Shown here: positions 3,070 to 53,481 of the stretch, in pieces | How positions within the stretch are numbered: position 1 is the first letter of the stretch | Layout: each line of letters opens with the position of its first letter | Assembly (NCBI GenBank): GCA_963716725.1 | Contig: CAVQUB010000021.1 | Coordinates: 384,440 to 448,439 of the forward strand | Direction of reading: 5' to 3' | Source: an uncultured delta proteobacterium | Lineage (GTDB): Bacteria; Myxococcota_A; Polyangia; Polyangiales; Polyangiaceae | DNA: 64,000 nucleotides | Notes under the pieces: model-generated | What the model saw: the letters and a program-made list of their open reading frames with translations, nothing else | Databases searched by the model: none | What the model was told of the DNA's origin: nothing | Program-made: the position numbers and the translations under genes

Positions 3070-3537
3070 ATGAACATTCCGCTTTATGGATTCACCGAGA
3101 CGATGCGCGGCACCTGGACGCCGCTGGACGGCAGTGGCCGAAAGACCATGTGGTTTCGCGCCGAGGCCGACGCGAGCGACGCGGCGGGCACCCTGTCGCG
3201 CGGCGCGCTCACGCTGACGGGCAAGATGCACGCTGAGGGCCTCGCCGACGGGGCGCCCGCGACGGGACGCATGGAAATCCAGCCGCTCTCGCGGCGGATC
3301 GGCTACGAGCTCGAGTTCACCGCCGACGACGGCCGGCGCTGCCGCTTCGTGGGCGAGAAGTCGCCGAGCCTGCGCTCGCCGCTGAGGTCCATGACCACGC
3401 TCCCGGGCGAGGTGCTGGACCCGGAGGGCAAGCGGCTCGGGACGGCGCTGCTTTACTTCGATCTGAAGAATGATCTGATCCCCTTCCTCGGAACCTTTCG
3501 GCGAGGCCGCCGGGTGCCGATGGAGGTCGAGCCATGA
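3070..3537 (+). CDS. Hypothetical protein co-transcribed with the GMC oxidoreductase
   Basis: 155-aa ORF with ATGA overlap with the next gene. Confidence 0.65.
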   Translation: MNIPLYGFTETMRGTWTPLDGSGRKTMWFRAEADASDAAGTLSRGALTLTGKMHAEGLADGAPATGRMEIQPLSRRIGYELEFTADDGRRCRFVGEKSPSLRSPLRSMTTLPGEVLDPEGKRLGTALLYFDLKNDLIPFLGTFRRGRRVPMEVEP

Positions 3538-5172
3538 TGAGCCTGCCCGTAGTCGATAACGCGCCGCCGCCGCGACGCTCCCAGCCCTCGTCGCAGTCCC
3601 CCGCTGGCATCATCGCCCGCGACGCCTTCGGCTCGCGTCACGTCGAGACCGCCCGCGCCTTGATGGAGGCCGTGGTCCCCGGCGGACGCCTGCTGCCGCG
3701 AGCCGACGACGCGGCGGTGGATCGCCTGGCGCGACTGCTCGGCTCCTTCGACTCTCGCGCGCTGGGTCACTATCAGAGGCTTCTCGGCGTGCTCGACGCC
3801 ATCGCCTTCACGCGCCACGCGCGGCGCTTCGCCGCTCTCGATCTCGAGCGGCGCTCGGCGCTGATCTGGTCGCTGCACTCCGGCGACGATCCGGTGCGGC
3901 GCGCGTTGTTTCTGGCCTTCACCTACCCGGTGAAGATCGCCTACTTCGACGCCCCAGGCATCCACCAGACCCTGGGCTGCGTGTGGGAGAAGCCCGTGGC
4001 CGCCGAGAAGCCCGCGGCTTGGCTGCGCCAGATCACCGCCGCGCGCGATCTTCCCGCGGGAGAGGTCCTCGAGTGCGACGTGATCGTGGTCGGCACCGGC
4101 GCCGGCGGCGCCGTCGTCGCCAACGAGCTCGCCGAGCAGGGCATCGCGGTCTTGATGGTCGAAGAGGGCGAGCTGCACCAGCGGCAGGACTTCACCCGGC
4201 GGTCCATTCCCGCCACGCAGCAGCTCTACCGCAACGCGGGGCTCACGGGCGTGATCGGCAACTCGGTGATCCCGATCCCGCTCGGACGCGCGGTGGGTGG
4301 CTCGACGGTGATCAACTCGGGCACCTGCTTCCGAGTGCCCGAGTGGATCCTGGAGAACTGGCGCCACGATCTGGGCCTGCTCGAGCTGACCGAGGATCAC
4401 TTGGCCCCCTTCTACGAGAAGGTCGAGCGCACGCTGGAGATCGCTCCTTCGACCAAGGAGGCCCGCGGACCGGTGAGCGACGTGATCGCGCAGGGCGCCG
4501 AGGCGCTGGGTTGGAGTCACTTTCCGGTGCGCCGCAACGCGCCGGGCTGCGACGGTCAGGGCGTGTGTCAGTGGGGCTGCCCGACGGACGCCAAGAAGAG
4601 CATGAACGTCTCCTATGTGCCGATGGCGCTCTCGAAGGGGGCGCAGCTCATCACCGGTCTCGCCGTCACCGAGGTCATGGTCGAGGGCGGACGCGCGGTG
4701 GGCGTGCGCGGGCGAGCGGCGCCCGACGGCCGGCGGGTCGAGGTGCGCGCGCGCGCGGTGATCTTGGCCTGCGGCGCGCTCCTGACCCCGGCGTTGCTGT
4801 TGAAGAACGGCATCGCGAACCACAGCGGGCAGGTTGGGAGGAACCTCTCGGTGCACCCGGCCACCAGCGTGAGCGCGGTCTTCGATCGACCAATCCGCGG
4901 CTACAACCACGTACCGCAGGGCCACGGCGTCGATCAGTTTCATCGCGAGGGCATGCTGATGCTCGGCGCCAGCGCGCCCCTCGACATGGGATCGACGTTG
5001 TTCCCCTTCGTGGGCCAGCGCTTCGTCGAGGCGATGGAGAGCTACGACAAGGTCGCTTCGTTCGGCGTGATGGTCGAGGACGGCCCCAACGGTCGCATCG
5101 TGCTCGGCCCGGGCCGGCGCCCGATCACGCTCTACCACCTCGGGACCCGCGAGCGGCGGCTGCTCGCCAGAG
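3534..5172 (+). pseudogene. GMC family oxidoreductase, C-terminally truncated at the junction
   Basis: [14 protein letters not shown] motif, [22 protein letters not shown]; no C-terminal catalytic His region; sequence switches to guaA near 5175. Confidence 0.8.
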
Positions 5173-5184
5173 GCAGCGCCGCCA

Positions 5185-6254
5185 GACGCGGGCCTTTTAC
5201 GGCCTGCAGTTTCATCCGGAGGTGACCCACACGCGCCAGGGCGGGCGCATCCTCGAGCGTTTCCTGTTCGAGATCTGCGGCTGCGAGGCCTGTGGAATCC
5301 GCGCAGCATCATCGATGACGGCATCCAGCAGCATGCGCGAGCAGATCGGCGACGGCCGCGTGGTTCTCGGCCTGTCCGGCGGCGTCGATTCGTCGGTGGT
5401 GGCGGCGATGCTGCACCGGGCAGTCGGCGACCGACTGGTCTGCGTGTTCGTCGACAACGGCCTGCTGCGCCTGCACGAGGGCGACCAGGTGATGGCGACC
5501 TTCGCCGAGCACATGGGCGTTAATGTCATCCGGGTGAATGCCGAGGACCGCTTCCTCAAGGGCCTCAAGGGCGTGGCCGATCCGGAGCAGAAGCGCAAGA
5601 TCATCGGCAACCTGTTCATCGATATCTTCGAGGAGGAGGCGGCCAAGCTCGAGGACGTGGCACTTCCTGGCACAGGGCACCATCTACCCGGACGTGATCG
5701 AGTCGGCCGGCGCCGCATCGGGCAAGGCGCACGTGATCAAGTCGCATCACAATGTCGGCGGTCTGCCGGACTACATGAAACTCCAGCTGGTCGAGCCGCT
5801 GCGCGAGCTGTTCAAGGACGAGGTGCGGCGGATCGGCGTCGAGCTGGGCCTGCCCTCCGAGATGATCTACCGCCATCCGTTCCCGGGCCCTGGGCTGGGC
5901 GTGCGCATCCTCGGCGAGGTGCAACAAGGAGTACGCCGACATGCTGCGCCGGGCGGATGCGATCTTCATCGAGGAACTGCGCAAGGCCGATCTGTACGAC
6001 GAGGTCAGCCAGGCCTTCGCGGTGTTTCTGCCGGTCAAGTCGGTCGGCGTGGTCGGTGACGCACGGCGCTACGAGTACGTGATCACGCTGCGCGCGGTGA
6101 AGACCGTCGATTTCATGACCGCGCAGCTTCGCCCATCTGCCGTTCGAGTTTCTCGAGCAGGTTTCGCAGCCGCATCATCAACGAGGTGAACGGCGTCTCG
6201 CGCGTGGCCTACGATATCTCGAGCAAGCCGCCGGCCACGATCGAGTGGGAGTGA
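5185..6254 (+). CDS. guaA: GMP synthase (glutamine-hydrolysing), 3' part; 5' part missing and several frameshifts
   Basis: [57 protein letters not shown] and C-terminal [17 protein letters not shown] (6252-6254), spread over several frames. Confidence 0.95.
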
Positions 6255-6406
6255 CCGGAATTTTTAACACATTGATTTAAAACGATAAAATAAATCCAAT
6301 TGATAATATAATCTGCATCGTCAATGGTATTTTTCATGGTATTTCCGAGTGCTGTAAGGCAGAAAGCAGCAATACCATGAGTGGCAGATTGGCGTAATCA
6401 TGGTAT
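6237..6406 (+). repeat. Junction J1 (attL-like): guaA 3' core plus right arm
   Basis: Core ATCGAGTGGGAGTGA 6240-6254; IHF-consensus TAACACATTGATT 6265-6277; AATGGTAT/CATGGTAT doublet 6323-6342; inverted ATACCATG 6372-6379; CATGGTAT 6399-6406. Confidence 0.9.
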
Positions 6407-6444
6407 CAGCGGTCGGCACTCAGATATCGCGTTCTGAACGAGCA

Positions 6445-6517
6445 TGGCGTGATTTAGGGCTTTAAGCACGCCAAATATGACTATAATGTGGCGTGAATAA
6501 GTGCTAGAATCGCGCCA
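6445..6517 (+). promoter_or_regulatory. Two 29-bp TGGCG-N19-CGCCA palindromes flanking a TATAAT -10 box (putative fic operator/promoter)
   Basis: 6445-6473 and 6489-6517; TATAAT at 6482-6487; same arrangement at 31148-31220. Confidence 0.65.
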
Positions 6518-7663
6518 TGAAGTGGATATGGCAACAGCCCGACTGGCCAGATTTTCGCTATGACAATCGCGCGCTCAATGATCGGGAACTTGAATTTCGC
6601 CTGAACTCAGAGCGCCTGGCGGGCAGCTTTGATGCGCTACCGATGGCGTCCCAAGAGGATGCCACGATTGACTTGATGCTTTCCGAGGCCATCAAAACCA
6701 GCGCCATTGAGGGCGAGGATCTGGACAGAGAGTCGGTCAGGTCATCGCTGCTCTCTTTAATTACATCGGATACGCTACCGGACAACTCAGACCAGAAAGC
6801 TGCTGGGGCTGCATCGCTGCTGGTGGACGTTCGCAAGAACTGGCAAACATCCCTGACGCATGACCTGCTGGGCAAGTGGCAGTCCATGGCTGTCCCGGAG
6901 CAGCGCTACACGTCTATTCTGCGTGGCGCATACCGCAACGATCCTTCACCGATGCAAATAGTGAGCGGGCCTTACGGGCGGGAAAAGGTTCACTATGAGG
7001 CCCCGCCAGCGACTCAGGTGCCTGATGAAATGGCGAAGGCTTATCGACTGGTACAACCAAACCAGTCCTTTGAGCGGGGATAAGACAATACACGGGATCG
7101 CAAGAGCAGGTATTGCTCATCTCTGGTTCGAGGTGATTCACCCCTTCGATGATGGTAATGGTCGAGTCGGCAGGGCGATCGCTGACCATGCGCTTTCGCA
7201 GTCTCTCGGCTATCCAACCACGGCTTGTCTTGCCACGGCGATAGAGGGGGATAAAAAAACCTATTACCTGCAACTGGAGAAAGCGAGTCGTGGAAGCCTG
7301 GATGTTAACGTTTGGCTGGATTATTTCGCAGACACAATAATCAAGGCACAGGAAATTGCCAGGGAAGAAGTGGACTTTGTACTGGCCAAGACACGTTTCT
7401 ACGAAGCCTATGGCGACCAGCTGAATGACCGGCAGGCCAGGATGGTATCGCGGGTATTCGCTGAAGGTCGAAAGGGCTTTGAAGGCGGAATAACGACTAA
7501 AAAATATGAAGCGATTACCAAGTGTCCCAATCGAACGGCCAGCCGTGATCTTTCTGACCTGGTTGCCAAGGGTATCATCATCCCGTTACCAGGTGGTGGC
7601 AGAACAACCCGATATGAGTTGACGATTGTTGAACCGGCTCAGTCTGGTCTGATGAGGAAATGA
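6517..7663 (+). CDS. Fic family protein (DUF4172-Fic-wHTH), single frameshift near 7038
   Basis: HPFDDGNGRVGR motif; paralogue of 31220-32365 with one extra G (aaggctt vs aagctt). Confidence 0.9.
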
Positions 7664-7735
7664 TTTTCTTCGCTCTGGAGCGAGCGATTTTATCTGCACA
7701 AGCCTGAACGATTTAATGAATTTCCATTTTGTCCT

Positions 7736-9112
7736 ATGAACGTCGATACACTCAAAGAAAAACTGGCTGATATCGATGCAGATACCTTGCGGAATTTTAT
7801 ATTCGACCTCTACCTCCGCTATCCGGAGTTGAGCGACAAGATCGAAGCATTGACATTGGCAAATGATCCGGTCGCCCTGTCCAGGGTGCTGCGCAAGCGT
7901 ATTGCATCGCTGAAACGAGGGCGGAGGTTTATCGATTATCGGGCGAGTTTTGATTTTGCACGCGAACTGGAAGCGACCCTCGCCGACATTGAAAGCGGAC
8001 TGCTGGAGCGCTCACCGGAACATGCGTTTGATTTGGTCGACCGGTTCCTGGCGACGGCAGAATCGGTGCTCAACCGTGTCGATGATTCTGGCGGGGCAGT
8101 GGGCGAGGTATATCGCCAAGCCGTACTGTTGTGGTTGACGGCGGCTAAAGGCTGGCGGGATGCCAACGTCGACTGGCTCGAGCGGATATATCAGCTGTAT
8201 CAGCAGAATGATTATGGTGTGCTTGATCCGCTATTGCCAAATGCCAACCTGCTGTTGACGCCGGATCAGCTGAAGCAACTTGCCTGGCGGTACGAAAACG
8301 CGTTGCGCAAGGCGTTAAAATCTCCCGAACAAGAAGACAAACTCAATCTCGTGGCCTTGCGTAGCGGCGTGGCATTAGGACAGATAGCCGATGCCTTGCG
8401 TGATCCTGCCTTATACGAGCGATCGGTATTGATACATTCGCCACAGCCAAACAATCTGCAAATGAAATCGATTTGTGAAAAATATTTGCAGTATGAGCAG
8501 CCCGAGACGGCAATGCGTTATCTGAACCAGGCATGGGAGGACCGTTTTGAGCGTGATCGTCTGGAATTGCTGGATAAGGTCTGTGTGAAAACGGGTGACC
8601 GGAAACAGCTTAAAGTGATTCGTTCTCGGCTGTTTCAGAGCGAGCAGAGCTACCCCAGTTTCACGCGATATCTGGAGGCCTTGGACGAGGATGAGAAAGA
8701 GAAAGCGTGTAGCTCAGCAATCAAGCAAGCCGAACAGAGTGGCAATATCGTACTCAGCGCAGATCTGTTATTAAACCTGAGCCAGACGGAGAGAGCTCAG
8801 GCCTTAGTCTTAGCTCGGCATCAGGAGTTGGCGGAGTGTTTTTATGACAGTCTGCTGAGGCTGGCCAAGGCGTTTGAAAAAGCGGATTGCAATCTGGCGG
8901 CTACGGCGTGCTACCGCGCCTTGTTGCTGGATATCCTGGCACAGGCGCGCAGTAAGGCTTACGGCCATGGTGCACGGTACTATAAAAAGCTGGAAGCGCT
9001 GGCGAAGCGGATCAAGGAATTCAAACCACTGCCAACACATCACGCCTTCGTGCAGCAATTGCACTCGGCGCATGGGCGAAAGAAAAGTTTTTGGGCGCGA
9101 CTGGAATCATGA
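7736..9112 (+). CDS. Helical hypothetical protein (DUF6880-like)
   Basis: 458-aa ORF; RVDDSGG.VGEV, ARSKAYGHGARY and HGRKKSFW motifs. Confidence 0.65.
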   Translation: MNVDTLKEKLADIDADTLRNFIFDLYLRYPELSDKIEALTLANDPVALSRVLRKRIASLKRGRRFIDYRASFDFARELEATLADIESGLLERSPEHAFDLVDRFLATAESVLNRVDDSGGAVGEVYRQAVLLWLTAAKGWRDANVDWLERIYQLYQQNDYGVLDPLLPNANLLLTPDQLKQLAWRYENALRKALKSPEQEDKLNLVALRSGVALGQIADALRDPALYERSVLIHSPQPNNLQMKSICEKYLQYEQPETAMRYLNQAWEDRFERDRLELLDKVCVKTGDRKQLKVIRSRLFQSEQSYPSFTRYLEALDEDEKEKACSSAIKQAEQSGNIVLSADLLLNLSQTERAQALVLARHQELAECFYDSLLRLAKAFEKADCNLAATACYRALLLDILAQARSKAYGHGARYYKKLEALAKRIKEFKPLPTHHAFVQQLHSAHGRKKSFWARLES

Positions 9113-9185
9113 TGTGCCGAAGCCTGCAGCACGGCATGGGGTGGCTTCTCGACATTTCCGGTGAGTATCAGCAGCAATTTCTGAA

Positions 9186-9278
9186 CATGGTATTTTTCAT
9201 GGTATTACCGATTAGCAGGAAAATAAGCCATTGAATATAAAAGATAAAAATGGCTCGTTTACAATCGAGTGGGAGTGA
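9186..9278 (+). repeat. Junction J2: left arm plus core, no standard right arm
   Basis: CATGGTATTTTTCATGGTAT at 9186; core 9264-9278. Confidence 0.9.
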
Positions 9279-9758
9279 CTGGCACTCGCAGGCAACTACA
9301 GGAACCAAAAGCACAAAAACTTGCGTAATTCATCAGTCGGCTGGAACTATCTCTGGAATATCGGCGAGCGGAACAGAGGGTGACAGCCCCATCTTCCAAA
9401 TCCTGACGTGGACGTCGGCGAAGCGTTTTGACGTCTGTAAGTGCGGATTTCTTGCTCATGAGTCCCCTTGTTGAATCGGGCCGTCGTGATCGACGCTCAC
9501 GACGATCTTGTGCAGCGGCACGCTGGTCTCCCCGGCGCTCCGTGAAAAGAGTCCGCGTAACATTGGAGCTCCAGTCTGTACGCCAGCGCACCGTAGCGAC
9601 TTCGCCCCGCGGTCGTTGCGAGAGCAGTGTGCAAGATTGTCGCGCTCGAGGCCGAAGAATTCGACGTTCTGACGGGCATCGGTGAGCAAGCGACGATGAA
9701 AACTAAGCTGAATTTCGATCTGCAAGCACACCGGTATTGTCAGGCTGGCTGAATACAC

Positions 9759-14590: not shown

Positions 14591-14836
14591 CATGGTATTT
14601 CACATGGCACTAAGATACATGACCGATATTAACTACATGAAAATAATAGAAAATAATTGCTTATTTACCATCGAGTGGGAGTGACAGGAATTTTTAAAAC
14701 ATTGATATAAAACGATAAAATTAATCCAATTGATAATGTAATCTGCATCGTCAATGGTATTTTTCATGGTATTTCCGAGTGCTGTAAGGCAGAAAGCAGC
14801 AATACCATGAGTGGCAGATTGGCGCAATCATGGTAT
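14591..14836 (+). repeat. Junction J3: full attP-like element (246 bp)
   Basis: Degenerate left doublet 14591; core 14670-14684; right arm nearly identical to J1. Confidence 0.9.
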
Positions 14837-14945
14837 CAGCGGTCGGCACTCAGATATCGCCTTTTGAACGAGCGTGGCGTGATTATACTGGTGGGCACTG
14901 TTGATCACGGTGCCTACCCCCATTTCCGAAAGGCGTGTCCTTGTG

Positions 14946-16198
14946 TTATTTCAGTGCCTGCCAACCAGGTACGGCCTTGGTGAACTCTTCTTGAAATGCC
15001 GGACGTTTGATGTTGTCCTTTTTGACTTCGAGTGCGAAGTCACGCCAGCGAGATGGATCACGCAGCACATCAACCAACACATGGTGGACCTTCTTCATTA
15101 CCTGTGCCTTGCGGGTGTATTCCCTGCGCGTGGCGTTGGTCTTGAGGTTGCCCAGTCCTGATATATAGTATTTTAATATTGCCTCGGGATACCTGCCTTC
15201 AAGACGCTTGGCGGTCTGCAGTTCATAGGCGCTGTCCCAAGCGTAGAGGGGGTAACGGCTTCGGGTCAGCACCGCCACCGCTTCCTCGTACTCCTTGCGG
15301 TGCATGCGGATACGAAGTTGCTCCGTGTCCCGGGCGTTTTCCAGCCGTGCAAGGATTTTCGCTTCGTAACACTTCCACTCAGTGACCGTGCATAGTTTCC
15401 CAAATGTCTTGTACTTGTCGCAGGTCAGAGAATCGATCGCCTGATCAAACTGTAGTGCCAGGTAGCGTTCACGATTGCCGGCGGATTTGACACGCTTGGC
15501 AACGAACTGACGCAATTCATCCATGCGGCCTTTTCCCTTGAGTAGTCCTGTTTCCGCGACCTCCATGGCCTTCTGTTTTTCACCGGCCTTCCAGTGGAAA
15601 TCCGCCAAGTCGAAATAGTCGGTGCCAGTGGCCAGTTTACGCTGGCGCAGCTCGAGATATTTTCCACGGTCACCGAGGCGGCGATAAATGCGGCGGGCAT
15701 GGTCGAGTTTCCAGTCCCCTCCCATGGTCTCGAAGGCTTGCGCCAGTGCGCGCCAATCGGCGTCGGTGTAACAGGCCGCATAGGCCAGGTCGTAGAGGTC
15801 GTCGTCAAGTCCAGCATTACCGCTTTCGATATAGGGCAGGGCATTGTCGAGAAGTTTTTGCCGGTAGTCTGAATCGATCTTTTTCGTGAAAGCCCCTGTG
15901 CGATCTCTTGCAACAGGCTCGAAGCATGGATGTCGGCATCATAATCGCCGCCACCGTATGCATCCAGCTCGTCCAGATCTGGCGCGAGTTCGGCCCACAG
16001 GGCAAGCAGTTTTTCACTCTCGGACTGCTTCTTCCGACTGGGTGACAGGGCAGTATGCCTGTTCAGGTAGTCGAGGCACTCACGCCGGACATCGGGGCGT
16101 GAGGATGCCACGCGTACGATCAGATCGACCAGCTTTGCTTTCGGCGCGGTCTCCGGCAAAGCGGCCAGTGGATCATCCTGTTTACGTTTTCCCGCCAT
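14946..16198 (-). CDS. Helical hypothetical protein, frameshift near 15885
   Basis: ORFs 15425-16198 and 14946-15725 overlap and read as one ~415-aa TPR-like protein. Confidence 0.6.
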
Positions 16199-16207
16199 AA
16201 CGAACTG

Positions 16208-17231
16208 TTACCTGGGAAGCTGAAATTGAACGATCTGGTCCAGTAACGGCAAGGCCTTTACCCGGTACTCGTGACACAGGAGCTCGTCGGAAACCGGCTC
16301 CACCGTCGCTAAACCCATAAAGTCTGCGAAATGCACCAGCGAACGCCAGGTGTAACCGCGACGCATTGTCTCATCGGGGGAAATTACCTGGCTCGGTGGC
16401 ACTTCATCCAATAGCCGCGGAAAGGCGCCCAGGAAGGCATTTTCATAAAATGCCTGCGGTCGCCAGGCGTCACCGTAGCGGGTGAGCAGGCAAAGTGTGA
16501 ACAGGAAGGCGCTCTGCATGAATCTCAACTCAGGATAGCCGTCTCTGTGTGCCCAGTTGAACTGTTCGACATAGGCCCTGAACAATTTGGGGTAGATGGC
16601 AGTCATGCCGTCCCCTGCCTGCAGCTGGCGACAATCGCGGCTGAGGATAAATCGGCCCTTGTATTTGCGAATCAACCCCGCCAGTTCGGCCACAAGCCGG
16701 GTGACATGCAGATCGTCAAAATCCTCCTCCCGATTGATGCCGCCATATCGGGTCCGCTCCTGATATTTCTCTTTACCCAAGTAGGTCAGGGCGGCCTCGC
16801 GGCAGAAGTTGCGCGGCAGATTGCCCTTGGCGGTCGGTTTGAGGCCCTGCTCGCCGATGGCGTCGGTCAATAGCTCGAACAGGGTCAGTATTGGCGCGAC
16901 CGGGTTGCTGTGGAGCACCTCCGGAAAACGGACCAGCCCCTGTGATGCGAACGGAAAATTCAGTATCCGGTGCATCTGCTCGGGCGATAAACCGTGAAAC
17001 TCGTCCAGCTGCCGACGGTTTTGCTGTTGGGTAATCTGGTCTAGAAATGCCTGGGGACTCTTGCAGCGAGTTGAATTGCCGGCCTTCGAATGTTTCGCGC
17101 AAGGCTTCGGAAGTGCTTACCGCGTCAGGGTTGGATGCCGTGCTGTTCTCCTTGCCCAGGCAGCAGTGCTTGAATTTCTTTCCGCTGCCGCAAGGGCACG
17201 GATCATTGCGTCCGATGCCTGGTGTTTTTAT
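16208..17231 (-). CDS. SEC-C motif protein, frameshift near 17050
   Basis: Manual translation [19 protein letters not shown] upstream of ORF 16208-16975 ([10 protein letters not shown]); start codon reads ATA overlapping the upstream stop. Confidence 0.7.
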
Positions 17232-18403
17232 ATCACGATCTGCACAGAGTCGATTTCATGCCACGATAGTACAGTGACATCGGAACGTGTCTGTCGACTG
17301 TCGCCGCCGTAAACCAGCCATGCCTGTCCGGCGGTTCCGCCTGCCAGATTTTGCCAGAACTCCAGCCCTTTGAAGTAATCCTTGTTGATGGTTTGCCCAG
17401 ATTTGATTTCCAGCGGTGACAGATGGGTTCCGTGGTCAATCAGCAGATCCACCTCGTGTCCCGAACGATCACGCCAGAAGTAGAGGTTCGAGGTTTCGCC
17501 TGCGTTATAACGGGCCTTAAGCAATTCACTGATAACCCAGGTTTCAAACAAGGCACCCCGTTGAACGTGGGTAGCCAATTGCTCGTTGTTTTGGATGCCG
17601 AGGAGCCAGGTGGCAAGACCCGTATCCAGAAAATAGAGTTTGGGTGTTTTGACTAAACGCTTGTTGAAATTCTGGTGATGCGGTGGCAACAGATGCACGA
17701 TATAACTGGCTTCCAGTACGGATATCCAGGCTTTGGCTGTGTTGTGTGTAATGCCACAGTCATTGGCCAGCGAGGAAAGATTGAGGAGTTGTCCGGTCCG
17801 GCCCGCGCACAATTTTAGAAAGCGTTGAAATGTGCCCAGATCCTGTACCTTGATCAATTGCCGGACGTCTCGTTCCAGGTAAGTGCGCACATAGTTTCCA
17901 TACCAGGGGTGCGGTTCGAGTCCGCGGTCGAAGATGGGGGGATACGCCCCATCAAAGAGTATCTTGTCGACGCTCTTGCCAATTTTTCCTGAGCCTTGTA
18001 ACTCGCCGTAGGTCATGGGTAACAGCGTCAACAATGCGGCTCTGCCTGCCAGACTCTGCGTGATGCCTGTTAACAGACCAAACTGCTGAGATCCCGTCAG
18101 AATAAATTCGCCGGGTTGTTGCCTTTCATCGACGCGTGTCTGTAGATAGGAAAACAGGGCAGGGCAGCGTTGCGCCTCGTCCAGGATGGCGCCCCCACTG
18201 AATTGATTCAAAAAACCACGCGGATCCGTTTCTGCAAATTCCCTTTGGTCGAGATCTTCGAGTGATACATAACGGTGGTCGGGAAAGGCATGCCTCACCA
18301 GAGTGGACTTGCCAGACTGGCGTGGACCTGTGACCACAACCACTGGATAGCCGCTGGCGAAGTGTTGAAGTCTGGATTCTGCGTTCCGGGGGATGTAGGT
18401 CAC
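17228..18403 (-). CDS. AAA+ ATPase with DUF4143 (ATP-binding protein)
   Basis: [45 protein letters not shown]. Confidence 0.9.
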
Positions 18404-18622: not shown

Positions 18623-18868
18623 CATGGTATTTTTCATGGTATTACCAATGAGCAGGAGAATAAGCAATTGAATATAAAAGATAAAAATGGCCTGTTTACA
18701 ATCGAGTGGGAGTGACTGGGATTTTTAACCTATTGATTATTAAAAATAAAAAAGATCTAATTTATAATATAATCCGCATCATCAATGGCATATTTCATGG
18801 TATTTGTTCCGTGTGGCAAGGCAGAACACATCGATACCATGATAATAAAATTGAGTTTGGCATGGTAT
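18623..18868 (+). repeat. Junction J4: full attP-like element (246 bp)
   Basis: Left doublet 18623; core 18701-18715; right-arm motifs to 18868. Confidence 0.9.
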
Positions 18869-20034: not shown

Positions 20035-22752
20035 ATGAAACCCTTGCTGGAAAAACACTGGCACCACCTGCCTCGGGACGAGGTGCTGGACCTGCTCGAC
20101 ACCGATGCGAAGAAAGGCCTGGACCGTTTCGAGGTCGAGGAGCGACAGCAGAACTTCGGTCCCAACGTTCTGACGCAGCGCAAGGGCAAGGGGCCACTGC
20201 TGCGTTTCCTGCTGCAGTTTCACCAGGCGCTGGTCTATATCCTGCTGGCCGCGGTCGTGATCAAACTCATGCTGGGCGCCTGGGTGGATGCCAGCGTGAT
20301 TTTCGGCGTGGTCCTGCTCAATTCCATCATCGGCTTCGTGCAGGAGGGCAAGGCCCTGAGCGCACTGGCGGCGCTGGCAAGCGCGCTGACCACGGCTGCC
20401 ACTGTGGTGCGCGCCGGCGAGAAGCATCGCATAGACGCCCGTGAACTGGTGCCCGGCGATATTGTTTTACTGGCCTCCGGCGACAAGGTACCGGCGGACC
20501 TGCGCCTGCTGCACGACCGTAACCTGCAGATCGACGAATCCGCCTTGACCGGCGAGTCAGTGCCGGTGGAGAAGTGTTTGGGCGAACTGGCCCACGACGC
20601 CGTGCTGGCGGAGCGCGCCAACATGGCCTATTCCTCCACCCTGGTGACCTATGGCACCGGGGTCGGCGTAGTCACCGAAACCGGCGACAGCACCGAGATC
20701 GGCCGCATCTCAGAACTGATCGCCGGCGCCGAAGTGTTGGCCACGCCGCTGACCCGCAAGATTGCCCGCTTCAGTCACGTACTGCTCTATGCGATTATCG
20801 TGCTGGCAGGCCTGACCTTCGCCGTAGGCCTGTGGCACGGGGGCTCGGCGGTGGACATGTTTATGGCCGCCGTAGCGATGGCTGTCGCCATGATCCCGGA
20901 AGGACTACCCGCCGTCCTTACCATCACCCTGGCCATCGGTGTAGCACGCATGGCCAAACGCCATGCCATCATCCGCCATCTACCTGCAGTCGAGACCCTC
21001 GGCAGCACAACCGTGATCTGCTCGGACAAGACCGGCACCCTGACCCGCAACGAGATGACAGTGCAGCGTCTCTGGGCGGGTAACAAAATGGTCGAGGTCA
21101 CCGGCGTGGGTAACACGCCGCAAGGCGAACTGTCGCAAAATGGCCAGGCGCTGGCGCTCAGCGATCACACTGCCCTATCGGAATTGCTACGTGCTGGCCT
21201 GCTATGCAACGACGCAGTGCTCAAGCAGGAGAATGGCGCCTGGAAGATAGAAGGTGACCCCACCGAAGCTGCACTGCTGGTCGCGGCCGGCAAGGCCGGG
21301 GTCGATGCGGAAAAAACACATGAAGCCTACCCCAGACTCGATGCAATTCCCTTCGAGTCACAGCACCAGTACATGGCCACCCTGCATGGCGGTGACAAAC
21401 CGGTTATCTATCTCAAGGGCTCGGTCGAGAGCCTGCTTGCACGCTGTGCCGATGTCCTGAGCGCCGACGGTGAGAGCCGGCCGCTGGACACTGCCGAGGT
21501 GCATGCCCAGGTCGAGGCAATGGCGCGTCAGGGCATGCGGGTGCTGGCATTCGCCCGTCTCAATGTTCAACCGGATACCACAGCAGTCGATCACCCACAG
21601 GTTGAGGGCGGCCTCACCTTTATCGGGCTGCAGGGCATGATCGATCCACCACGCGAGGAGGCCATCCTCGCAGTCAAAGAATGTCAATCGGCAGGCATCC
21701 AGGTCAAGATGATCACTGGTGATCACGCCACAACGGCGGCAGCCATCGCGGGTCAGATCGGTTTGGGCGGCCCGCTGCCAGATGGCGAGGTCCCGGACGT
21801 GCTAACCGGTAGTGAACTGGCGGCGCTGAGCGACGCCGAACTTATAGACGCTGCCGCCGATATCGAGGTGTTCGCCCGCGTTACGCCGGAACAGAAGCTG
21901 CGCCTGGTGGAAGCCCTGCAAGCACGCGGCGAGGTGGCGGCCATGACCGGCGACGGGGTCAACGATGCCCCGGCCCTGCGCCGCGCTGATATCGGCGTGG
22001 CCATGGGCATCAACGGTACCGAGGTGTCGAAGGAGGCCGCCGACATGATACTTACCGACGACAACTTTGCCACCATCGGAGCGGCGGTGGAGGAAGGCCG
22101 TGGTGTATTCGCCAATCTAACCAAGTTCATCACCTGGATCCTGCCGACCAACGCCGGCCAGGGACTGGTGATTATCGTCGCGGTGATGGCGGCCCAGCCG
22201 TTGCCGGTATTGCCGGTGCAGGCGCTATGGATCAACATGACGACCGCCGTGCTGCTCGGCCTAGCCCTGGCCTTCGAGCCCAGGGAGCCGGGCATTATGC
22301 GGCGCCCGCCGCGCCGGCCGGATGTGCCTATCCTCGGCGGTGAACTGATTGTCCGCATCCTGCTGGTGGGTCTGCTGCTGCTGATCGGCGGCTTCGGTCT
22401 GTTCGAATGGGCCCTGTACCGGGGCGCCAGCGAAGACGAGGCGCGCACTATCGCGGTCAATGTGTTTGCCGTGGGGCAGTCCTTCTACCTGCTCAACTGC
22501 CGCTCGCTGCGCTTTTCGATGTTTCGCCTCGGTTTGTTCAGCAACCCGTGGATCTGGGCCGGTATCGCCGCCATGATAGTGGCGCAACTCCTGTTCACCT
22601 ATCTGCCGGTGATGAACTGGCTGTTCCATACCGCGCCAATCGGCTGGATGGACTGGCTGCACATCGTGTTGGTCGGACTGGTGATCTATCTGGCCATCGG
22701 TGCGGAAAAGGCGTGGCGGCTGCGGCGTGAGGCGGGTGACAGTGAAACATGA
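20035..22752 (+). CDS. Cation-transporting P-type ATPase (type IIA-like)
   Basis: TGES, PEGL, DKTGTLT, TGDGVNDAPAL. Confidence 0.95.
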   Translation: MKPLLEKHWHHLPRDEVLDLLDTDAKKGLDRFEVEERQQNFGPNVLTQRKGKGPLLRFLLQFHQALVYILLAAVVIKLMLGAWVDASVIFGVVLLNSIIGFVQEGKALSALAALASALTTAATVVRAGEKHRIDARELVPGDIVLLASGDKVPADLRLLHDRNLQIDESALTGESVPVEKCLGELAHDAVLAERANMAYSSTLVTYGTGVGVVTETGDSTEIGRISELIAGAEVLATPLTRKIARFSHVLLYAIIVLAGLTFAVGLWHGGSAVDMFMAAVAMAVAMIPEGLPAVLTITLAIGVARMAKRHAIIRHLPAVETLGSTTVICSDKTGTLTRNEMTVQRLWAGNKMVEVTGVGNTPQGELSQNGQALALSDHTALSELLRAGLLCNDAVLKQENGAWKIEGDPTEAALLVAAGKAGVDAEKTHEAYPRLDAIPFESQHQYMATLHGGDKPVIYLKGSVESLLARCADVLSADGESRPLDTAEVHAQVEAMARQGMRVLAFARLNVQPDTTAVDHPQVEGGLTFIGLQGMIDPPREEAILAVKECQSAGIQVKMITGDHATTAAAIAGQIGLGGPLPDGEVPDVLTGSELAALSDAELIDAAADIEVFARVTPEQKLRLVEALQARGEVAAMTGDGVNDAPALRRADIGVAMGINGTEVSKEAADMILTDDNFATIGAAVEEGRGVFANLTKFITWILPTNAGQGLVIIVAVMAAQPLPVLPVQALWINMTTAVLLGLALAFEPREPGIMRRPPRRPDVPILGGELIVRILLVGLLLLIGGFGLFEWALYRGASEDEARTIAVNVFAVGQSFYLLNCRSLRFSMFRLGLFSNPWIWAGIAAMIVAQLLFTYLPVMNWLFHTAPIGWMDWLHIVLVGLVIYLAIGAEKAWRLRREAGDSET

Positions 22753-27399: not shown

Positions 27400-30084
27400 A
27401 TGAAGCTTGAACTTGACTTGGAAAGGCAAGCAATTACTGCCTGGCACACCTTGAAGGCGGACGAGTGCGCCTCGCGGTTGCAAGTGGAGGCCGCGAACGG
27501 GCTGGATCCGGCGGAGGTGCAGGAGCGCCTGGAGCACCATGGCGAAAACCGTCTTGCCGAGAAGCCACCACGGCCCAAATGGCTCGCCTTCCTTGATCAG
27601 TTCAAGAGCCTTCTGATCCTGGTGTTGGTCGGGGCCGCCTGGCTGGCGGGCGCCATCGGCGATATCAAGGACGCGGTGGTGATCATGATCGTGGTATTGT
27701 TCAATGCGTTGCTCGGCTTCTGGCAGGAACGCCGGGCCGAGCAAACATTGGCGGCGCTTAAGAAAATGCTCTCGCCAGCGGCCCGTGTGCGCCGCGGAGG
27801 CCGTGTCGAGGAGATCGACGCCAGGTATCTGGTGCCGGGAGACGTCGCGTTACTGGTAGCGGGTGGCCGGGTGCCGGCGGATGGTCGGCTGCTGGTCACC
27901 CACAATGCCGAGGTCGACGAGTCCGCGCTCACTGGCGAGTCCCACCCGGTGGGCAAAGAGGCGTACGGGCTGCTCCCGGACAAGGCACCGCTGGCTGAAC
28001 GCACCAACATGGCCTTCATGAACACGGTAGTTACCCGTGGACGGGCGGAATTGCTGGTGACCGGCACCGGTATGGCCACCGAGATGGGGCGGCTCTCCGA
28101 TATGTTGGCCGAGGCGGAGCCCGGCCCCACCCCGCTTCAGGTCCAGCTCGACGGGCTTGGTCACCGGCTGGCGCTAATCGCCGGCGTGGTGATCACGCTG
28201 ATCTTCTCCCTGGGATTGCTACGGGGCGAGCCATTGGTGCAGACCGTCCTCACCTCTATCGCATTGGCGGTGGCCGCCATACCGGAAGGTTTGCCGGCCG
28301 TGGTGACGTTGACACTCGCCATCGGCATGCACCGCATGGCCCGGCACCGTGCCATCGTCAAGAAGTTGGCTGCGGTGGAAACCCTCGGCTGCACCACGGT
28401 TATCTGCTCGGACAAGACCGGCACCCTCACCCTGAACCAGATGACCGCGCGCGCCCTGGTCTACGGAGGACGGCGTTTTGCGGTCTCCGGTGAGGGTTAC
28501 GCCGCAGAGGGAATGATCGAAGCAGAGGACGGCAGCCTGCTGCCGGCTCTCGAGCCGCTACTGCATCCAGCGGCGCTGGCTAATGACAGCCGCATTCGCG
28601 ACGGGCAGCTGATCGGTGATCCCACCGAAGGGGCATTGCTAGCACTGGTGGCCAAAGGCGGGCTGGATGTTGAGTCACTAGCGGCGCACCATCCGCGCAT
28701 CGCCGAGATCCCCTTCGATTCAGCACACAAATTCCAGGCCACCTTCCACCAAGATGGCGAATTGGTGCACCTCTACGTGAAAGGCGCGCCGGACGTGCTG
28801 CTCGCCCGCGCAAGCCGCCAGCTCGAACCCGACGGTGCCCGCCCGCTGGATGCGGGTTACTGGCAGGCCGAGAACGAACGGCTCGCCGGCAGCGCCATGC
28901 GGGTCTTGGCGGTGGCCGCCAAGACCCTCCCGGCAAAGGCGTTCGACCCGGCTGGCGATTTGATGGTCCATGTGGCCGAGCTCGATTTTGCCGCGCTGAT
29001 CGGCATCATCGACCCGCCGCGCCCGGAGGCACGCGATGCCATCGCCCTGTGCCGACGCGCCGGGATTGAGGTCAAGATGATCACCGGCGACCACAAGATT
29101 ACCGCCGCCGCTATCGCCCGGGAACTGGGGCTGGAGGGCGAGGTGATCGAGGGGTGGGAGCTGGATGCGCTTTCGGCAGAGACGCTGGCTACGAAGATCA
29201 AAGACATTGCTGTGTTTGCTCGTGTCGCCCCAGAGCACAAGGTGCGCATCGTGCAGGCGCTGAAGGCCGACGGCCACGTCACTGCCATGACCGGCGATGG
29301 GGTCAACGACGCCCCGGCGCTGAAACACGCCGATATCGGTGTGGCCATGGGCGTAACCGGTACCGAGGTGACCAAGGAAGCGGCCACCATGGTACTGACC
29401 GACGACAACTTCGCCACCATTGTGCGGGCGGTCAGGGAGGGACGCGCCATCTACGACAACATCGTCAAGTTCGTGCGCTTCCAGCTCTCCACCAACATGG
29501 GTGCCATCCAGACCGTGCTGGGCGCGAGCCTGCTGGGCTGGTCCACGCCATTCACCGCGATCCAGATCTTGTGGATCAACATCATCATGGACGGCCCGCC
29601 GGCCATGAGCCTGGGCGTGGAGCCCGCGCGCGACGGGATCATGGACGAGCCGCCGCGACAGACTGATGCCCGCATACTGACCGGGCCGAGGCTGGGGCGC
29701 CTGCTTGTTTACGGTCTGACCATGGCGGTCGGCACGCTGGGTCTGTTCCACTACGCCCAGCCCCGGGGCGAGGCCTATGCCCTGACGCTGGCCTTTACCA
29801 CCTTCGTGCTGTTCCAGTTCTTCAACCTGTTTAATGCCCGCGCCGAGCACGGTTCGGCGTTCAATGGTCACTTCTTCCGTAACCGCTGGATATGGCTCTC
29901 CTTGGCGGCGGTGCTGACGCTGCAGGCATTGGTTGTCCATTGGGCGCCCTTGCAAGACGTATTCGGCACCGCCGACCTGCAGCTTTCGGACTGGGGTTTA
30001 TCAGCGTTGGTCGCTTCAAGCGTGCTGCTGCTGGACGAGGGACGCAAGCTGATTCTGCGGCTGTCCACAGGTGGTTCGCGATGA
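27400..30084 (+). CDS. Cation-transporting P-type ATPase (second)
   Basis: TGES, IPEGLP, DKTGTLT, QILWINIIMDGPPA. Confidence 0.95.
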   Translation: MKLELDLERQAITAWHTLKADECASRLQVEAANGLDPAEVQERLEHHGENRLAEKPPRPKWLAFLDQFKSLLILVLVGAAWLAGAIGDIKDAVVIMIVVLFNALLGFWQERRAEQTLAALKKMLSPAARVRRGGRVEEIDARYLVPGDVALLVAGGRVPADGRLLVTHNAEVDESALTGESHPVGKEAYGLLPDKAPLAERTNMAFMNTVVTRGRAELLVTGTGMATEMGRLSDMLAEAEPGPTPLQVQLDGLGHRLALIAGVVITLIFSLGLLRGEPLVQTVLTSIALAVAAIPEGLPAVVTLTLAIGMHRMARHRAIVKKLAAVETLGCTTVICSDKTGTLTLNQMTARALVYGGRRFAVSGEGYAAEGMIEAEDGSLLPALEPLLHPAALANDSRIRDGQLIGDPTEGALLALVAKGGLDVESLAAHHPRIAEIPFDSAHKFQATFHQDGELVHLYVKGAPDVLLARASRQLEPDGARPLDAGYWQAENERLAGSAMRVLAVAAKTLPAKAFDPAGDLMVHVAELDFAALIGIIDPPRPEARDAIALCRRAGIEVKMITGDHKITAAAIARELGLEGEVIEGWELDALSAETLATKIKDIAVFARVAPEHKVRIVQALKADGHVTAMTGDGVNDAPALKHADIGVAMGVTGTEVTKEAATMVLTDDNFATIVRAVREGRAIYDNIVKFVRFQLSTNMGAIQTVLGASLLGWSTPFTAIQILWINIIMDGPPAMSLGVEPARDGIMDEPPRQTDARILTGPRLGRLLVYGLTMAVGTLGLFHYAQPRGEAYALTLAFTTFVLFQFFNLFNARAEHGSAFNGHFFRNRWIWLSLAAVLTLQALVVHWAPLQDVFGTADLQLSDWGLSALVASSVLLLDEGRKLILRLSTGGSR

Positions 30085-30862: not shown

Positions 30863-31108
30863 CATGGTATATTTCATGGTATTAACAATTAGCAGGAAAA
30901 AAAGTCATTGAAAATGAAAGACAAAAATGGCTTGTTTACAATCGAGTGGGAGTAGGGTGTATTAGCAACTCATTGAAATATAGCGATAAAACAACTCTAA
31001 TTAATAATATAATCTGCATCATCAATGGTATTTTTTATGGTATTTTCTGCGGCTGGCAGAGCTAAAATCAGCGATACCATGAGAGGCGAACTGATGCAGT
31101 CATGGTAT
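30863..31108 (+). repeat. Junction J5: full attP-like element (246 bp)
   Basis: Left doublet 30863; core ATCGAGTGGGAGTAG 30941-30955; right arm to 31108. Confidence 0.9.
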
Positions 31109-31147: not shown

Positions 31148-31220
31148 TGGCGTTATTGCGGGCTATAATCGCGCCATATATCCATGTAATATGGCGTGAA
31201 TAAGTGCTAGAATCACGCCA
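31148..31220 (+). promoter_or_regulatory. Second pair of TGGCG-N19-CGCCA palindromes before fic
   Basis: 31148-31176 and 31192-31220, same 44-bp period as at 6445/6489. Confidence 0.65.
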
Positions 31221-32365
31221 TGAGATGGATATGGCAACAATCCTATTGGCCCGATTTCTGCTACGACGTGCTTGCTCTCGAACACCGGGAGCTTGAGTTT
31301 CGCCTGAACTCAGAGCGTCTGGCGGGCAGCTATGATGCACTTCCTGTGGCATCTCAAAAGGATGCCACGATCGACTTGATGCTTTCCGAGGCCATCAAAA
31401 CAAGCGCCATTGAGGGCGAGAAATTGGACAGAGAGTCGGTCAGGTCGTCGCTGCTCTCATTAATTACATCTGATACGCTACCGGACAACTCAGACCAGAA
31501 AGCTGCTGGGGCAGCTTTGCTTCTGGTGGATGTTCGCAAGAACTGGCAAACATCCCTGTCACATGACCTGTTGGGTAAGTGGCAGTCCATGGCCATCCCG
31601 GAGCAGCGCTACACACCCATTTTGAGAGGTGCATACCGCAACGATCCTTCTCCAATGCAAATAGTGAGTGGGCCTTACGGACGCGAAAAGGTTCACTATG
31701 AGGCCCTACCAGCGGCTCGGGTGCCTGATGAAATGGCGAAGCTTATCGAATGGTACAACCAATCCAGTCCCTTGAGCGGGGATAAGATAATACCCGGGAT
31801 TGCACGAGCAGGTATTGCCCATCTATGGTTTGAAGTGATTCATCCCTTTGACGATGGTAATGGCCGAGTCGGTAGGGCGATCGCCGACCATGCGCTTTCG
31901 CAGTTTCTCGGTTATCCGACAACGGCCTGTCTTGCCACGGCGATAGAGGCGGATAAGAAAACCTATTACCTGCAACTGGAGAAAACGAGTCGTGGAAGCA
32001 TGGACGTTAATGCCTGGCTTGATTACTTCGCCGACAGGGTCATCAAGGCACAGGAAATTGCCAGGGAAGAAGTCGATTTTGTACTGGCCAAGACACGCTT
32101 CTACGAAGCCTATAGCGACCTGCTGAATGACCGGCAGGCGAGGATGGTGTCGCGGGTTTTCGCTGAAGGTCGAAAGGGCTTTGAGGGCGGCATAACGACC
32201 AAGAAATATGAAGCGATCACAAAGTGCCCCAATCGAACGGCCAGCCGTGATTTATCAGACTTGGTTGCAAAGGGGGTCATAATACCGTTACCGGGTGGTG
32301 GTAGAACGACCCGCTATGAGTTGAATGTTGTCGAACCAGTCGAATTTGGTTTAAGGGAGAAATGA
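31220..32365 (+). CDS. Fic family protein (intact paralogue)
   Basis: HPFDDGNGRVGR; C-terminal wHTH TASRDLSDLV.KG. Confidence 0.93.
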   Translation: MRWIWQQSYWPDFCYDVLALEHRELEFRLNSERLAGSYDALPVASQKDATIDLMLSEAIKTSAIEGEKLDRESVRSSLLSLITSDTLPDNSDQKAAGAALLLVDVRKNWQTSLSHDLLGKWQSMAIPEQRYTPILRGAYRNDPSPMQIVSGPYGREKVHYEALPAARVPDEMAKLIEWYNQSSPLSGDKIIPGIARAGIAHLWFEVIHPFDDGNGRVGRAIADHALSQFLGYPTTACLATAIEADKKTYYLQLEKTSRGSMDVNAWLDYFADRVIKAQEIAREEVDFVLAKTRFYEAYSDLLNDRQARMVSRVFAEGRKGFEGGITTKKYEAITKCPNRTASRDLSDLVAKGVIIPLPGGGRTTRYELNVVEPVEFGLREK

Positions 32366-32413: not shown

Positions 32414-32659
32414 CATGGTATTTTTCATGGCATTGCCAATTAGCGGGAAAATAAGCCATTGAATATTAAGGATAAATAAGCCTTATTTACAATCGAGTGG
32501 GAGTGACTGGAATTCCTAACACACTGAATTATATGAATTAAAACAATCCTATCGATAATGTATTCTGCATCATCAATGGTATTCTTCATGGTATTTTCAG
32601 CGCGCTGTAACGTAAAAAGCAGCGATGCCATGAGCGAAAAATTGATGCTGGCATGGTAT
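32414..32659 (+). repeat. Junction J6: full attP-like element (246 bp)
   Basis: Left doublet 32414; core 32492-32506; right arm to 32659. Confidence 0.9.
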
Positions 32660-40404: not shown

Positions 40405-40639
40405 CATGGTATTTTTCATGGTATTATAATTTTCCATAAAAAAAGCCGTAGAAAATGAAAGATAAAAATGACTTATTTACAATAGAGTGGGAGTGACTGA
40501 AATTTTTAACGCATTGATATATAACATATATATATAAATCTAATAAACAATGTATTCTGCATCATCAATGGTATTTATTGCCTGTAGCAAGGCAGAACAC
40601 ATCGATCCCATGAGATGAAAATTTAGTCTGGCATGGTAT
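40405..40639 (+). repeat. Junction J7: attP-like element; core variant ATAGAGTGGGAGTGA; one right-arm doublet unit missing
   Basis: Left doublet 40405; core 40482-40496; IHF match TAACGCATTGATA. Confidence 0.88.
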
Positions 40640-44670: not shown

Positions 44671-44765
44671 CATGGTATATTTTATGGTATTACCACATAC
44701 ACCAATAGTTATACCTTTTATATTAAATAGAAAAAAATGGCTCGTTTACAATCGAGTGGGAGTAG
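44671..44765 (+). repeat. Junction J8: left arm plus core, no standard right arm
   Basis: Doublet 44671; core ATCGAGTGGGAGTAG 44751-44765. Confidence 0.88.
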
Positions 44766-53147: not shown

Positions 53148-53164
53148 CGTTAATCCTCCGGCAG

Positions 53165-53467: not shown

Positions 53468-53481
53468 GTATTCGTAATAGT

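Follow-up and report, generated by a model that had tools for sequence, protein, structure and literature searches.

What are the AT-rich repeats that separate the gene cassettes lying behind guaA in an uncultured delta proteobacterium, and how did these cassettes come to stand in a row? The stretch of 64,000 nucleotides analysed here, hereafter the window, carries an array that begins at the stop codon of guaA, is at least 54 kb long and reaches at least position 60672. It comprises 11 cassettes of about 1-12 kb and 12 junctions (J1 to J12). One of these, J3 (14591-14836), is an intergenic, AT-rich segment of 246 bp located within a 400-bp bin at about 40% GC. A first-pass annotation had likened its anatomy to that of a phage attachment site (attP) of the lambda type. 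This comparison is supported by the fixed offsets of the parts, by the presence of two arms and a core, and by the Arm-DNA-bind_3 domain of a related integrase. We consider it likely that each junction is a complete attP-like P-core-P′ site, and that the array arose by serial insertion at guaA of integrase-less circles, an integrase of the clade found in the genomic island GIsul2 acting in trans.

On the forward strand, J3 starts with the arm-type unit P1 (14591-14598), a copy of CATGGTAT, followed by P2 (14603-14610), a degenerate unit, CATGGCAC, with two mismatches. The core ATCGAGTGGGAGTGA (14670-14684) is a copy of the 3′ end of guaA (IEWE and stop). It contains the crossover region GAGTGGGA (14673-14680), which is the core as defined by Zhang et al. 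(2022; PMC9376610). To its right lies an exact match to the consensus YAANNNNTTGATW of the integration host factor, IHF (14695-14707, H′-like). The right arm then consists of a P′1-P′2 doublet (14753-14772), where AATGGTAT (14753) and CATGGTAT (14765) are separated by four T, of the inverted unit P′3 on the reverse strand (14802-14809, ATACCATG when read on the forward strand), and of P′4 (14829-14836), the last CATGGTAT, 27 bp past the inverted unit. Counted from GAGTGGG, the units of such a site are found at -81 and -69 in the P arm and at +80, +92, +130 (inverted) and +157 in the P′ arm. In the whole window, CATGGTAT has 38 exact matches against 1.17 expected, a number reached by none of 100 shuffles, and nearly all copies fall inside junctions. 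The core, allowing up to two mismatches, is matched 10 times against 0.10 expected.

The main measurements of the first-pass annotation were reproduced. It had placed a left doublet 77-80 bp before the core in 10 internal copies; in all ten internal junctions with a core (J2-J9, J11 and J12) the doublet indeed begins 77-80 bp upstream of ATCGAG, some of its units having one or two mismatches (P2 of J3, as above; CATGGCAT for P2 of J6; TATGGTAT for P2 of J8; CATGGGAT for P1 of J9). On the right, where a doublet about 83 bp after the core start, an inverted unit and a final unit had been described, the order is AATGGTAT at +83 from ATCGAG, CATGGTAT, inverted ATACCATG and a last CATGGTAT. The span from first to last CATGGTAT, announced as 245-247 bp in six junctions, amounts to 246 bp in J3, J4, J5 and J6 and differs from this by one bp in J9 (247 bp) and J11 (245 bp). 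Several junction types had not been told apart at that stage, namely J7, which has lost a unit, J10, a coreless fusion, and J2, J8 and J12, which have a different right side. About 30 bp to the left of P1 (14561-14590 and the equivalent positions elsewhere) are moderately conserved, with a consensus near TTTTTCGAGCATTTTGAAGGATTTTCTGAG and an ATTTTC-like direct repeat of 10-bp spacing. The left arm may thereby have a binding site for another protein at its outer end.

The first junction of the array has a distinct organization. J1 (6240-6406, forward strand) is of the attL type. The last codons of guaA (IEWE and stop), which ends at 6254, constitute its core ATCGAGTGGGAGTGA (6240-6254), and an IHF-consensus site (6265-6277), P′1 (6323-6330), P′2 (6335-6342), the inverted P′3 (6372-6379) and P′4 (6399-6406) follow. 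J1 has no left arm, the guaA coding sequence occupying that place. A half-site at guaA, together with two-armed sites between the following units, points to tandem site-specific integration at a single target, and not to a miniature inverted-repeat transposable element (MITE) or another dispersed repeat.

A transposable element of this kind is one form of an alternative according to which the 246-bp unit would be a MITE, a transcribed structured RNA or a single-strand site resembling the attC of integrons. The pairs P′2/P′3 and P′3/P′4 are indeed inverted, and the P′2-P′3 spacer folds slightly better than its shuffles (mean z of -0.85 for 48 unique spacers, against -0.01 for a control spacer). 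A few divergent arms from other genomes, whose loci are numbered with the prefix L, also have strong private stems (L001 3191-3294, L049, L064). However, whole junctions fold with z values of only -0.87 and -0.67 on the two strands, and no Rfam family reaches threshold in the window. RNAalifold applied to 51 right arms returned a covariation term of 0.07, with one compensatory pair out of 13 and invariant stems. When the P′2-P′3 hairpin was tested in a fixed register, 84.4% of the cells were paired versus 84.3% in shuffles, the inner helix being 65.5% paired. As to a MITE, terminal inverted repeats and target duplications are absent, the outermost units are repeated directly, and the junctions at the array ends amount to half-sites broken at the core. 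The attC reading was rejected, since there is no integrase at the array head and covariation does not exceed that of shuffles. The first-pass annotation had named an RNA or a MITE as what would speak against its interpretation; Rfam, folding, covariation and terminal-repeat or target-duplication checks gave neither any support, and this alternative in all its forms appears very improbable. The P′2-P′3 spacer corresponds to 14773-14801 in J3, and its weak folding bias remains without explanation. A search for transcription signals gave four weak promoter-like matches against 1.3 expected, and no terminator.

The same junction occurs in many other genomes. A scan of species-representative genomes with the 19-base doublet yielded at least 142 stretches on at least 116 contigs, and longer flanks were obtained for 81 of these loci (2-kb flanks for 80). 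Contigs that hold arrays include CAWIHS010000003.1, CAVROQ010000019.1 and BQJD01000067.1. Among the matches listed, most sources are uncultured Gammaproteobacteria; Beta- and Alphaproteobacteria contribute some, and a few matches in other phyla are probably due to chance. In the same set, with overlapping categories, the doublet stands in its canonical context at 122 of 142 loci, is followed by the core 81 bp downstream at 92, and a core followed by a full right arm is present at 34. In 28 full junctions (22 unique), the offsets cluster at -81, -69, +79, +92, +130 and +157, where +79 marks the start of CAATGGTAT and hence places AATGGTAT at +80. Most offsets lie at most 2 bp from the mode, and all lie within 4 bp of it.

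An alignment of the junctions, as the first-pass annotation had suggested, was made with the 12 junctions of the window and with the 22 unique full junctions, which come from 17 sources, six of these junctions being from the window. Mean pairwise identity of the latter is 0.70 (range 0.48-0.91). Conservation is not uniform, and the flat profile without motif peaks that the first-pass annotation had named as evidence against its reading was not found. Information is near maximal at the CATGGTAT units, at the core, at two CATTGA blocks, which are the IHF-like blocks, and at a block just before P′1; the troughs are the stretches from P2 to the left CATTGA block, from P′2 to P′3 and from P′3 to P′4. 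Spacing and motifs are thus conserved in divergent junctions. That the spacing is under selection had been proposed from the window, and offsets staying within 4 bp of the mode across junctions 48-91% identical bear this out.

These data also bear on the idea that the repeats are inert scars, alike because of recent common ancestry through duplication or homologous recombination, with no selection involved. Some duplication is apparent in the window, where 6237-6454 and 14667-14884 are 95% identical and where Fic, AAA_14/DUF4143 and a toxin-antitoxin pair are duplicated. But junctions that are only 48-91% identical keep their units and offsets within a few bp while the spacers diverge, the pattern extends over at least 116 contigs belonging to many orders, and the ends of the array are split exactly at the core. 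An origin as inert scars is accordingly judged highly improbable.

Between the arms and the core, IHF-like sites occupy constant places. The window has eight matches to YAANNNNTTGATW against 1.15 expected, and five of the eight lie in junctions, starting at 6265, 14695, 18726, 40507 and 58927. The first-pass annotation had named four of these, all of which were recovered, and had missed the one at 18726, to the right of J4. Four of the five share one place, 25 bp past ATCGAG. Across the loci, the place of the best match to the consensus was determined in 41 unique right arms and 82 unique left arms. In 37 of the former it is +22 from GAGTGGG, the match being exact in 15 and one mismatch off in 22; in 71 of the latter it is -43, where 17 matches are exact and 50 have one mismatch. 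Locally shuffled segments contained no exact match, their best ones being mostly two or three mismatches away. In lambda attP, the H′ site lies to the right of the core and H2 between the left arm and the core; the sites at +22 and -43 mirror both. From their sequence and position, IHF would be the bending protein at -43 and +22.

Which enzyme would act on these sites? The first-pass annotation had considered the integrase to be missing, and none was found in the window either with Pfam or with tblastn. Pfam gave no Phage_integrase (PF00589) or AlpA match in the 59 open reading frames (ORFs) covering the array and its flanks. Searching the window by tblastn with three integrases of the relevant family and one AlpA gave a best E value of 0.2 and no remnant of an int gene. 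No int, alpA, rep or trb gene was found in the 64 kb. Lacking an int-alpA module of their own, the cassettes can be regarded as passengers of the GIsul2 system and not as members of the GIsul2 type of element.

The link to GIsul2 came from plasmids. At about 90% identity, the left arm and core of J4 match 3938 plasmid records and also 1617 of the 5426 E. coli genomes; no plasmid or E. coli record covered 80% of the whole J4 junction. In the records examined, the match directly adjoins the sulfonamide-resistance gene sul2 and corresponds to the right end (attR) of GIsul2. A full GIsul2 is carried by the A. baumannii plasmid NZ_CP074709.1, with int, alpA, repA, repC, trbJKL, ars genes, a resolvase, ISCR2 and sul2. 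In this locus (L147, 34.4 kb), all six copies of CATGGTAT or its complement fall within the three att regions. On the int side, three units precede the int start (17312) by no more than 130 bp, one of them inverted (17185) and two direct (17212 and 17280). Doublets of CATGGTAT are found at attR and at the internal attLR, 80-81 bp to the left of the core. The chromosome of E. coli NZ_CP019961.1 contains a guaA island with the same arm layout and an integrase 91% identical to that of GIsul2. The 27-bp step from inverted to direct unit is common to the window, to GIsul2 and to this E. coli island. The first-pass annotation had advised looking for such arms beside int in autonomous guaA islands, and CATGGTAT does stand beside int in both NZ_CP074709.1 and NZ_CP019961.1.

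The GIsul2 integrase (Int) belongs to a P4-like group with a PF13356 N-terminal domain. It has Arm-DNA-bind_3 (PF13356) at residues 2-88 (E value of 1.1e-19), a central domain and the catalytic domain PF00589. Its activity has been studied in recA-deficient E. coli, where GIsul2 and the integrase-less unit CR2-sul2 excise as circles and integrate at guaA (Zhang et al., 2022; PMC9376610). According to this article, Int by itself excises and integrates both units, recombining at GAGTGGGA; deletion of int abolished all events, and deletion of alpA/repA/repC, resG or rcr2 had no effect. The att sites are given there as 19 bp with the core GAGTGGGA, and its text has neither the word 'arm' nor the word 'IHF'. 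Mobilizable elements that integrate at guaA and carry int and alpA form a wide family according to a more recent preprint (10.64898/2026.01.12.698999), from which the words tandem, arm, attP and array are absent.

Natural variation offers a view of what CATGGTAT may be bound by. In a scan of 208 ORFs of the 81 longer-flank loci, which left out 15 further ORFs that are repeats of the sul2 block, tyrosine integrases were found only at L002 and L019. They are 55% identical to GIsul2 Int and are encoded about 320 bp to the right of a core preceded by a CATGGTAT left arm. Their own arms, of the GACGGTAA type, contain no CATGGTAT; the most repeated 7-mer is GACGGTA. The four or five GACGGTA(A) copies include inverted ones, and the series extends to a point about 25-30 bp ahead of the start codon. 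With a shared core, CATGGTAT is thus found beside int in 2 of 2 cases of the GIsul2 clade and GACGGTAA in 2 of 2 cases of the 55%-identical clade. Such switching of the motif with the integrase clade is what arm-type specificity predicts, in a comparison of only four cases. The stretch with GACGGTA(A) arms (L002, reverse strand, and L019, 2088-2403) includes an inverted pair and represents a natural specificity variant.

Two other integrases were set aside. A candidate GIsul2 int (H37) turned out to be an unrelated prophage integrase on a Klebsiella plasmid, and the integrase encoded 18 kb upstream on an A. towneri plasmid has no recognisable arms. Separately, the E. coli record NZ_CP026723.1 (L146, 19103-19522) shows the left arm and core of the sul2 side, then the GIsul2 right arm and the first 35 or so codons of int, cut by IS26. 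Many resistance regions show an int stub of this type, and 2032 plasmid records match part of it, most of them just the last 134 bases.

Several observations weigh against assigning the junctions to an integrase of the GIsul2 clade. In the longer-flank loci, none of the compact right arms of the CATGGTAT type has an integrase gene closer than 2 kb, and both ORFs with PF00589 (2 of 208) adjoin arms of the GACGGTAA type; the enzyme of the compact right arm is assumed from the identity of the motif. This compact arm (about 165 bp, four units) had no match in the plasmid collection. The CR2-sul2 unit, mobile in experiments, has no CATGGTAT on its CTGGCA-rich right side, so that right-arm units are not needed for every reaction. 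Finally, AT-rich DNA easily yields matches to the IHF consensus.

It may also be envisaged that the junctions are att sites of the GIsul2 system, with CATGGTAT bound by another protein, either a directionality factor of the AlpA/Xis type or a regulator of the element. An AlpA-family or helix-turn-helix protein is encoded right after int in GIsul2 and in its E. coli relative, and a regulator would likewise fit the position of the last unit, about 25-30 bp ahead of where int starts. Excisionases typically bind close direct repeats, like the doublets with their 12-bp spacing. Nevertheless, the two arms alike carry units, and these occur in either orientation, a layout that agrees with arm sites of an integrase better than with sites of an excisionase, and the integrase-less cassettes retain all six units and encode no AlpA. 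In the assay of PMC9376610, moreover, deletion of alpA/repA/repC changed no recombination product, including those that depend on excision. A role of this sort for AlpA or a regulator seems unlikely. From sequence comparison, it would be the integrase, rather than another factor, that binds CATGGTAT.

Elsewhere, cassettes are found in other orders. In L013 and L014, a sequence 98% identical to 6516-9279 (cassette 1) is preceded by a full junction and followed by chromosomal tadA, whereas in the window cassette 1 directly follows guaA and is followed by cassette 2. In L080, guaA (88% identical) is directly followed by a 92% match to 14666-16258 (cassette 3), and in L047 the tail of cassette 3 is joined via a junction to cassette 1. 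The helicase cassette, sixth in the window, is first after guaA in L033 and L061. Because identity breaks at the junctions, the cassettes move as units. Cassettes 90-98% identical to those of the window occupy other array positions elsewhere, so the sites worked recently, in line with the proposal of the first-pass annotation that they are or recently were functional.

From the observed geometry of the sites, their homology to GIsul2, the N-terminal domain of its integrase and the shuffling of cassettes, the following scheme may be drawn. The array would grow at the 3′ end of guaA as a GIsul2-clade tyrosine integrase, supplied in trans, inserts circular integrase-less cassettes in succession. 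The N-terminal domain of the enzyme would bind the CATGGTAT units at -81, -69, +80, +92, +130 (inverted) and +157, its other domains would bind the core, and IHF would make bends at -43 and +22, so that a single integrase molecule could contact the core and an arm unit at once, much as in lambda attP. When neighbouring junctions recombine at their cores, a circle comprising the cassette and a complete P-core-P′ site would be freed, with a hybrid junction remaining in the array. The freed circle could then re-insert at an empty guaA or at any core of an array.

The other junctions of the window, all on the forward strand, illustrate the possible variations. J4 (18623-18868) is full, with 246 bp and an exact IHF-consensus match at 18726-18738. 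J5 (30863-31108, 246 bp), whose core variant ends in TAG, J6 (32414-32659, 246 bp) and J9 (52422-52668, 247 bp), where three units are each one mismatch off, are also full. J11 (58888-59132, 245 bp) is full as well; it has a one-nucleotide deletion in the core and an exact left IHF-consensus site (58927-58939). J7 (40405-40639, 235 bp) has an exact IHF-consensus match at 40507-40519; a deletion has removed about 12 bp and, with them, a unit of its P′ doublet. J2 (9186-9278) consists of P1 (9186-9193), P2 (9198-9205), an IHF-like site with one mismatch (9224-9236) and the core (9264-9278); its right side is not of the CATGGTAT type and resembles the CTGGCA-rich sequence to the right of the GIsul2 attLR, at the CR2 end. 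J8 (44671-44765) likewise has a left arm and core, followed by a CTGGCA-rich, CR2/attLR-like right side. This second, CTGGCA/GGCA-rich type of right side is seen at 9279-9300 (J2), at 44766-44850 (J8), in L146 (15818-15850) and in L147 (29172-29200), and it resembles the sequence right of the GIsul2 attLR that is called the terIS end of ISCR2. In the window, no IS91-family gene follows these CTGGCA-rich right sides.

J10 (53635-53719) is a fusion of a left-arm-type doublet with the distal part of a P′ arm (inverted unit at 53685, last unit at 53712), without core and without both IHF-like sites. Among the matches listed, 10 of 142 loci show the same fusion (L010/L011/L012, L024, L035, L044, L046, L086, L094 and L133), in addition to the window. 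It was likely caused by deletion between two identical doublets of 19-20 bp, which welds adjacent cassettes together. J12 (60579-60672) has a left arm and a core followed by unrelated sequence; either the array ends here with its attR, or a cassette begins here whose right arm is of yet another kind. The region to its right (60673-64000) encodes an OprB porin and a mannitol dehydrogenase, and in L012 an OprB gene lies upstream of a junction. The GC content right of J12 is 52-58%, versus 65-72% upstream of guaA. In view of this difference and of the OprB gene in L012, the array may continue past the window.

The cassettes carry varied cargo. Domains identified include Fic/DUF4172 (twice), DUF6880, two MCRA hydratases, AAA_14/DUF4143 ATPases (twice), a ResIII helicase, two P-type ATPases with Na/H antiporter parts, toxin-antitoxin pairs of the HigB/HTH and Gp49 types, a DruA-transposase fusion, IS66, ZnuA/ABC-3, a PLD protein, a beta-lactamase-fold protein and ArsC/ACR3. 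With PADLOC, several of the proteins were assigned to known or candidate defence: SoFic (twice), PDC-S01 ATPase (twice), PD-Lambda-2 A/B, PDC-S44, PDC-S62, a PbeA-like helicase and a DrmC-like PLD protein. The spans with anti-phage or toxin-antitoxin genes are 6517-9112, 17228-18403, 31220-32365, 32708-33961, 45259-46878, 52779-53560, 53850-54287 and 59171-60409. Genes flanking the junction in other genomes are of like types (Fic, AAA_14/DUF4143, HipA, AbiE, TOTE primase-helicase, PIN). Within 34271-38857, a 660-residue ORF is DruA-like at its N terminus and also has the DNA-binding and DDE domains of a transposase; adjoining it, an IS66-family transposase apparently lies inside a D12-class adenine methyltransferase gene. 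Cassette 4 (18.9-30.8 kb) contains paralogous P-type cation ATPases (20035-22752 and 27400-30084) in repeated DNA about 73% identical, with Na/H exchanger, MnhE and universal stress protein genes between them. In guaA itself (3500-6254), there is no intact frame, the gene being split over at least three frames with a 3′ end that still reads IEWE-stop, and the Fic gene of cassette 1 is likewise split (6517-7083 and 6995-7663). Indels introduced by the assembly seem a better explanation than pseudogenes; given these frameshifts, ORF boundaries and calls in the window are approximate.

How does this array compare with known systems? Lambda attP, of about 240 bp, has arm-type sites P1, P2 and P′1-P′3 and the IHF sites H1, H2 and H′. 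The junction resembles it by its length of about 246 bp, by a short core shared with the bacterial site, by a repeated non-core arm motif on both sides, and by IHF-consensus sites between arms and core. Its sequence is unrelated, however, its six units are arranged as a left doublet and a right doublet followed by an inverted and a direct unit, and it lies between integrase-less cassettes instead of on a phage genome.

GIsul2 and CR2-sul2 are closer. The target at the 3′ end of guaA and the core GAGTGGGA are common to them and to the window array. With the sul2-proximal attR, identity is about 90% over the left arm and core, and what follows the core in J2 and J8 is similar to attLR on its CR2 side. 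CR2-sul2 is moreover a proven integrase-less unit moved in trans (PMC9376610). The differences are that the window holds 11 cassettes, against one island and one unit, and that most of these cassettes begin with the compact right arm of about 165 bp and four units. Another parallel is found in the cis-mobilizable elements (CIMEs), defined together with tandem accretion in PMC5704250, on the ICESt1/ICESt3 work of Pavlovic, Bellanger and Guedon. Like the cassettes, these are flanked by att sites, lack integration and transfer genes, and lie in tandem at the 3′ end of a conserved gene through site-specific recombination. The array differs by its eleven units in a row, by cassette types that recur across genomes, and by full two-armed junctions that are strongly conserved, which suggests maintained mobility rather than decay. 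With regard to an origin by decay from an autonomous element, the window shows no int remnant, and its compact right arm is similar to the int-proximal arm of GIsul2 in motif and in the 27-bp step.

The GIsul2-family integrase, the guaA core, units mobilised in trans and accretion are thus already known. In the literature searched, no description was found of arm-type or IHF sites of GIsul2, nor of long integrase-less arrays at guaA; within these bounds, the arm map with six units and two IHF-like sites and the arrays appear to be new. The left arm and core of the junction are the conserved sequence beside sul2 in thousands of resistance plasmids, whose boundaries have so far been described by a 19-bp att site. 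A map with six units and two bends would provide a model of what the integrase needs in cis and would predict which sul2-linked fragments still move. The integrase-less arrays would also imply that trans-mobilised units of this system are common outside the clinic.

Finally, a chromosomal integron is also a long, promoter-poor array, often rich in toxin-antitoxin and defence genes, built on a repeated site and a tyrosine recombinase. In contrast, the guaA array has no IntI, attI or Pc beside it and no covariation of the attC type, its cassettes are multigenic and 1-12 kb long, and its site would be, as judged from sequence, of a double-stranded, arm-dependent kind. A broader view, which we hold tentatively and rate a little below an even chance, is that guaA anchors, in many environmental Pseudomonadota, an integron-like platform of gene capture that relies on a lambda-type recombinase. 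The mobile unit would be a bare cassette with a 246-bp two-armed attP as its sole determinant of mobility, integrases of the GIsul2 clade would excise, shuffle and exchange such cassettes between genomes in trans, and the clinically ubiquitous CR2-sul2 unit would be one cassette that escaped from this pool. Arrays of this kind, rich in toxin-antitoxin and candidate anti-phage genes, would form a second cassette-array system beside the integrons.

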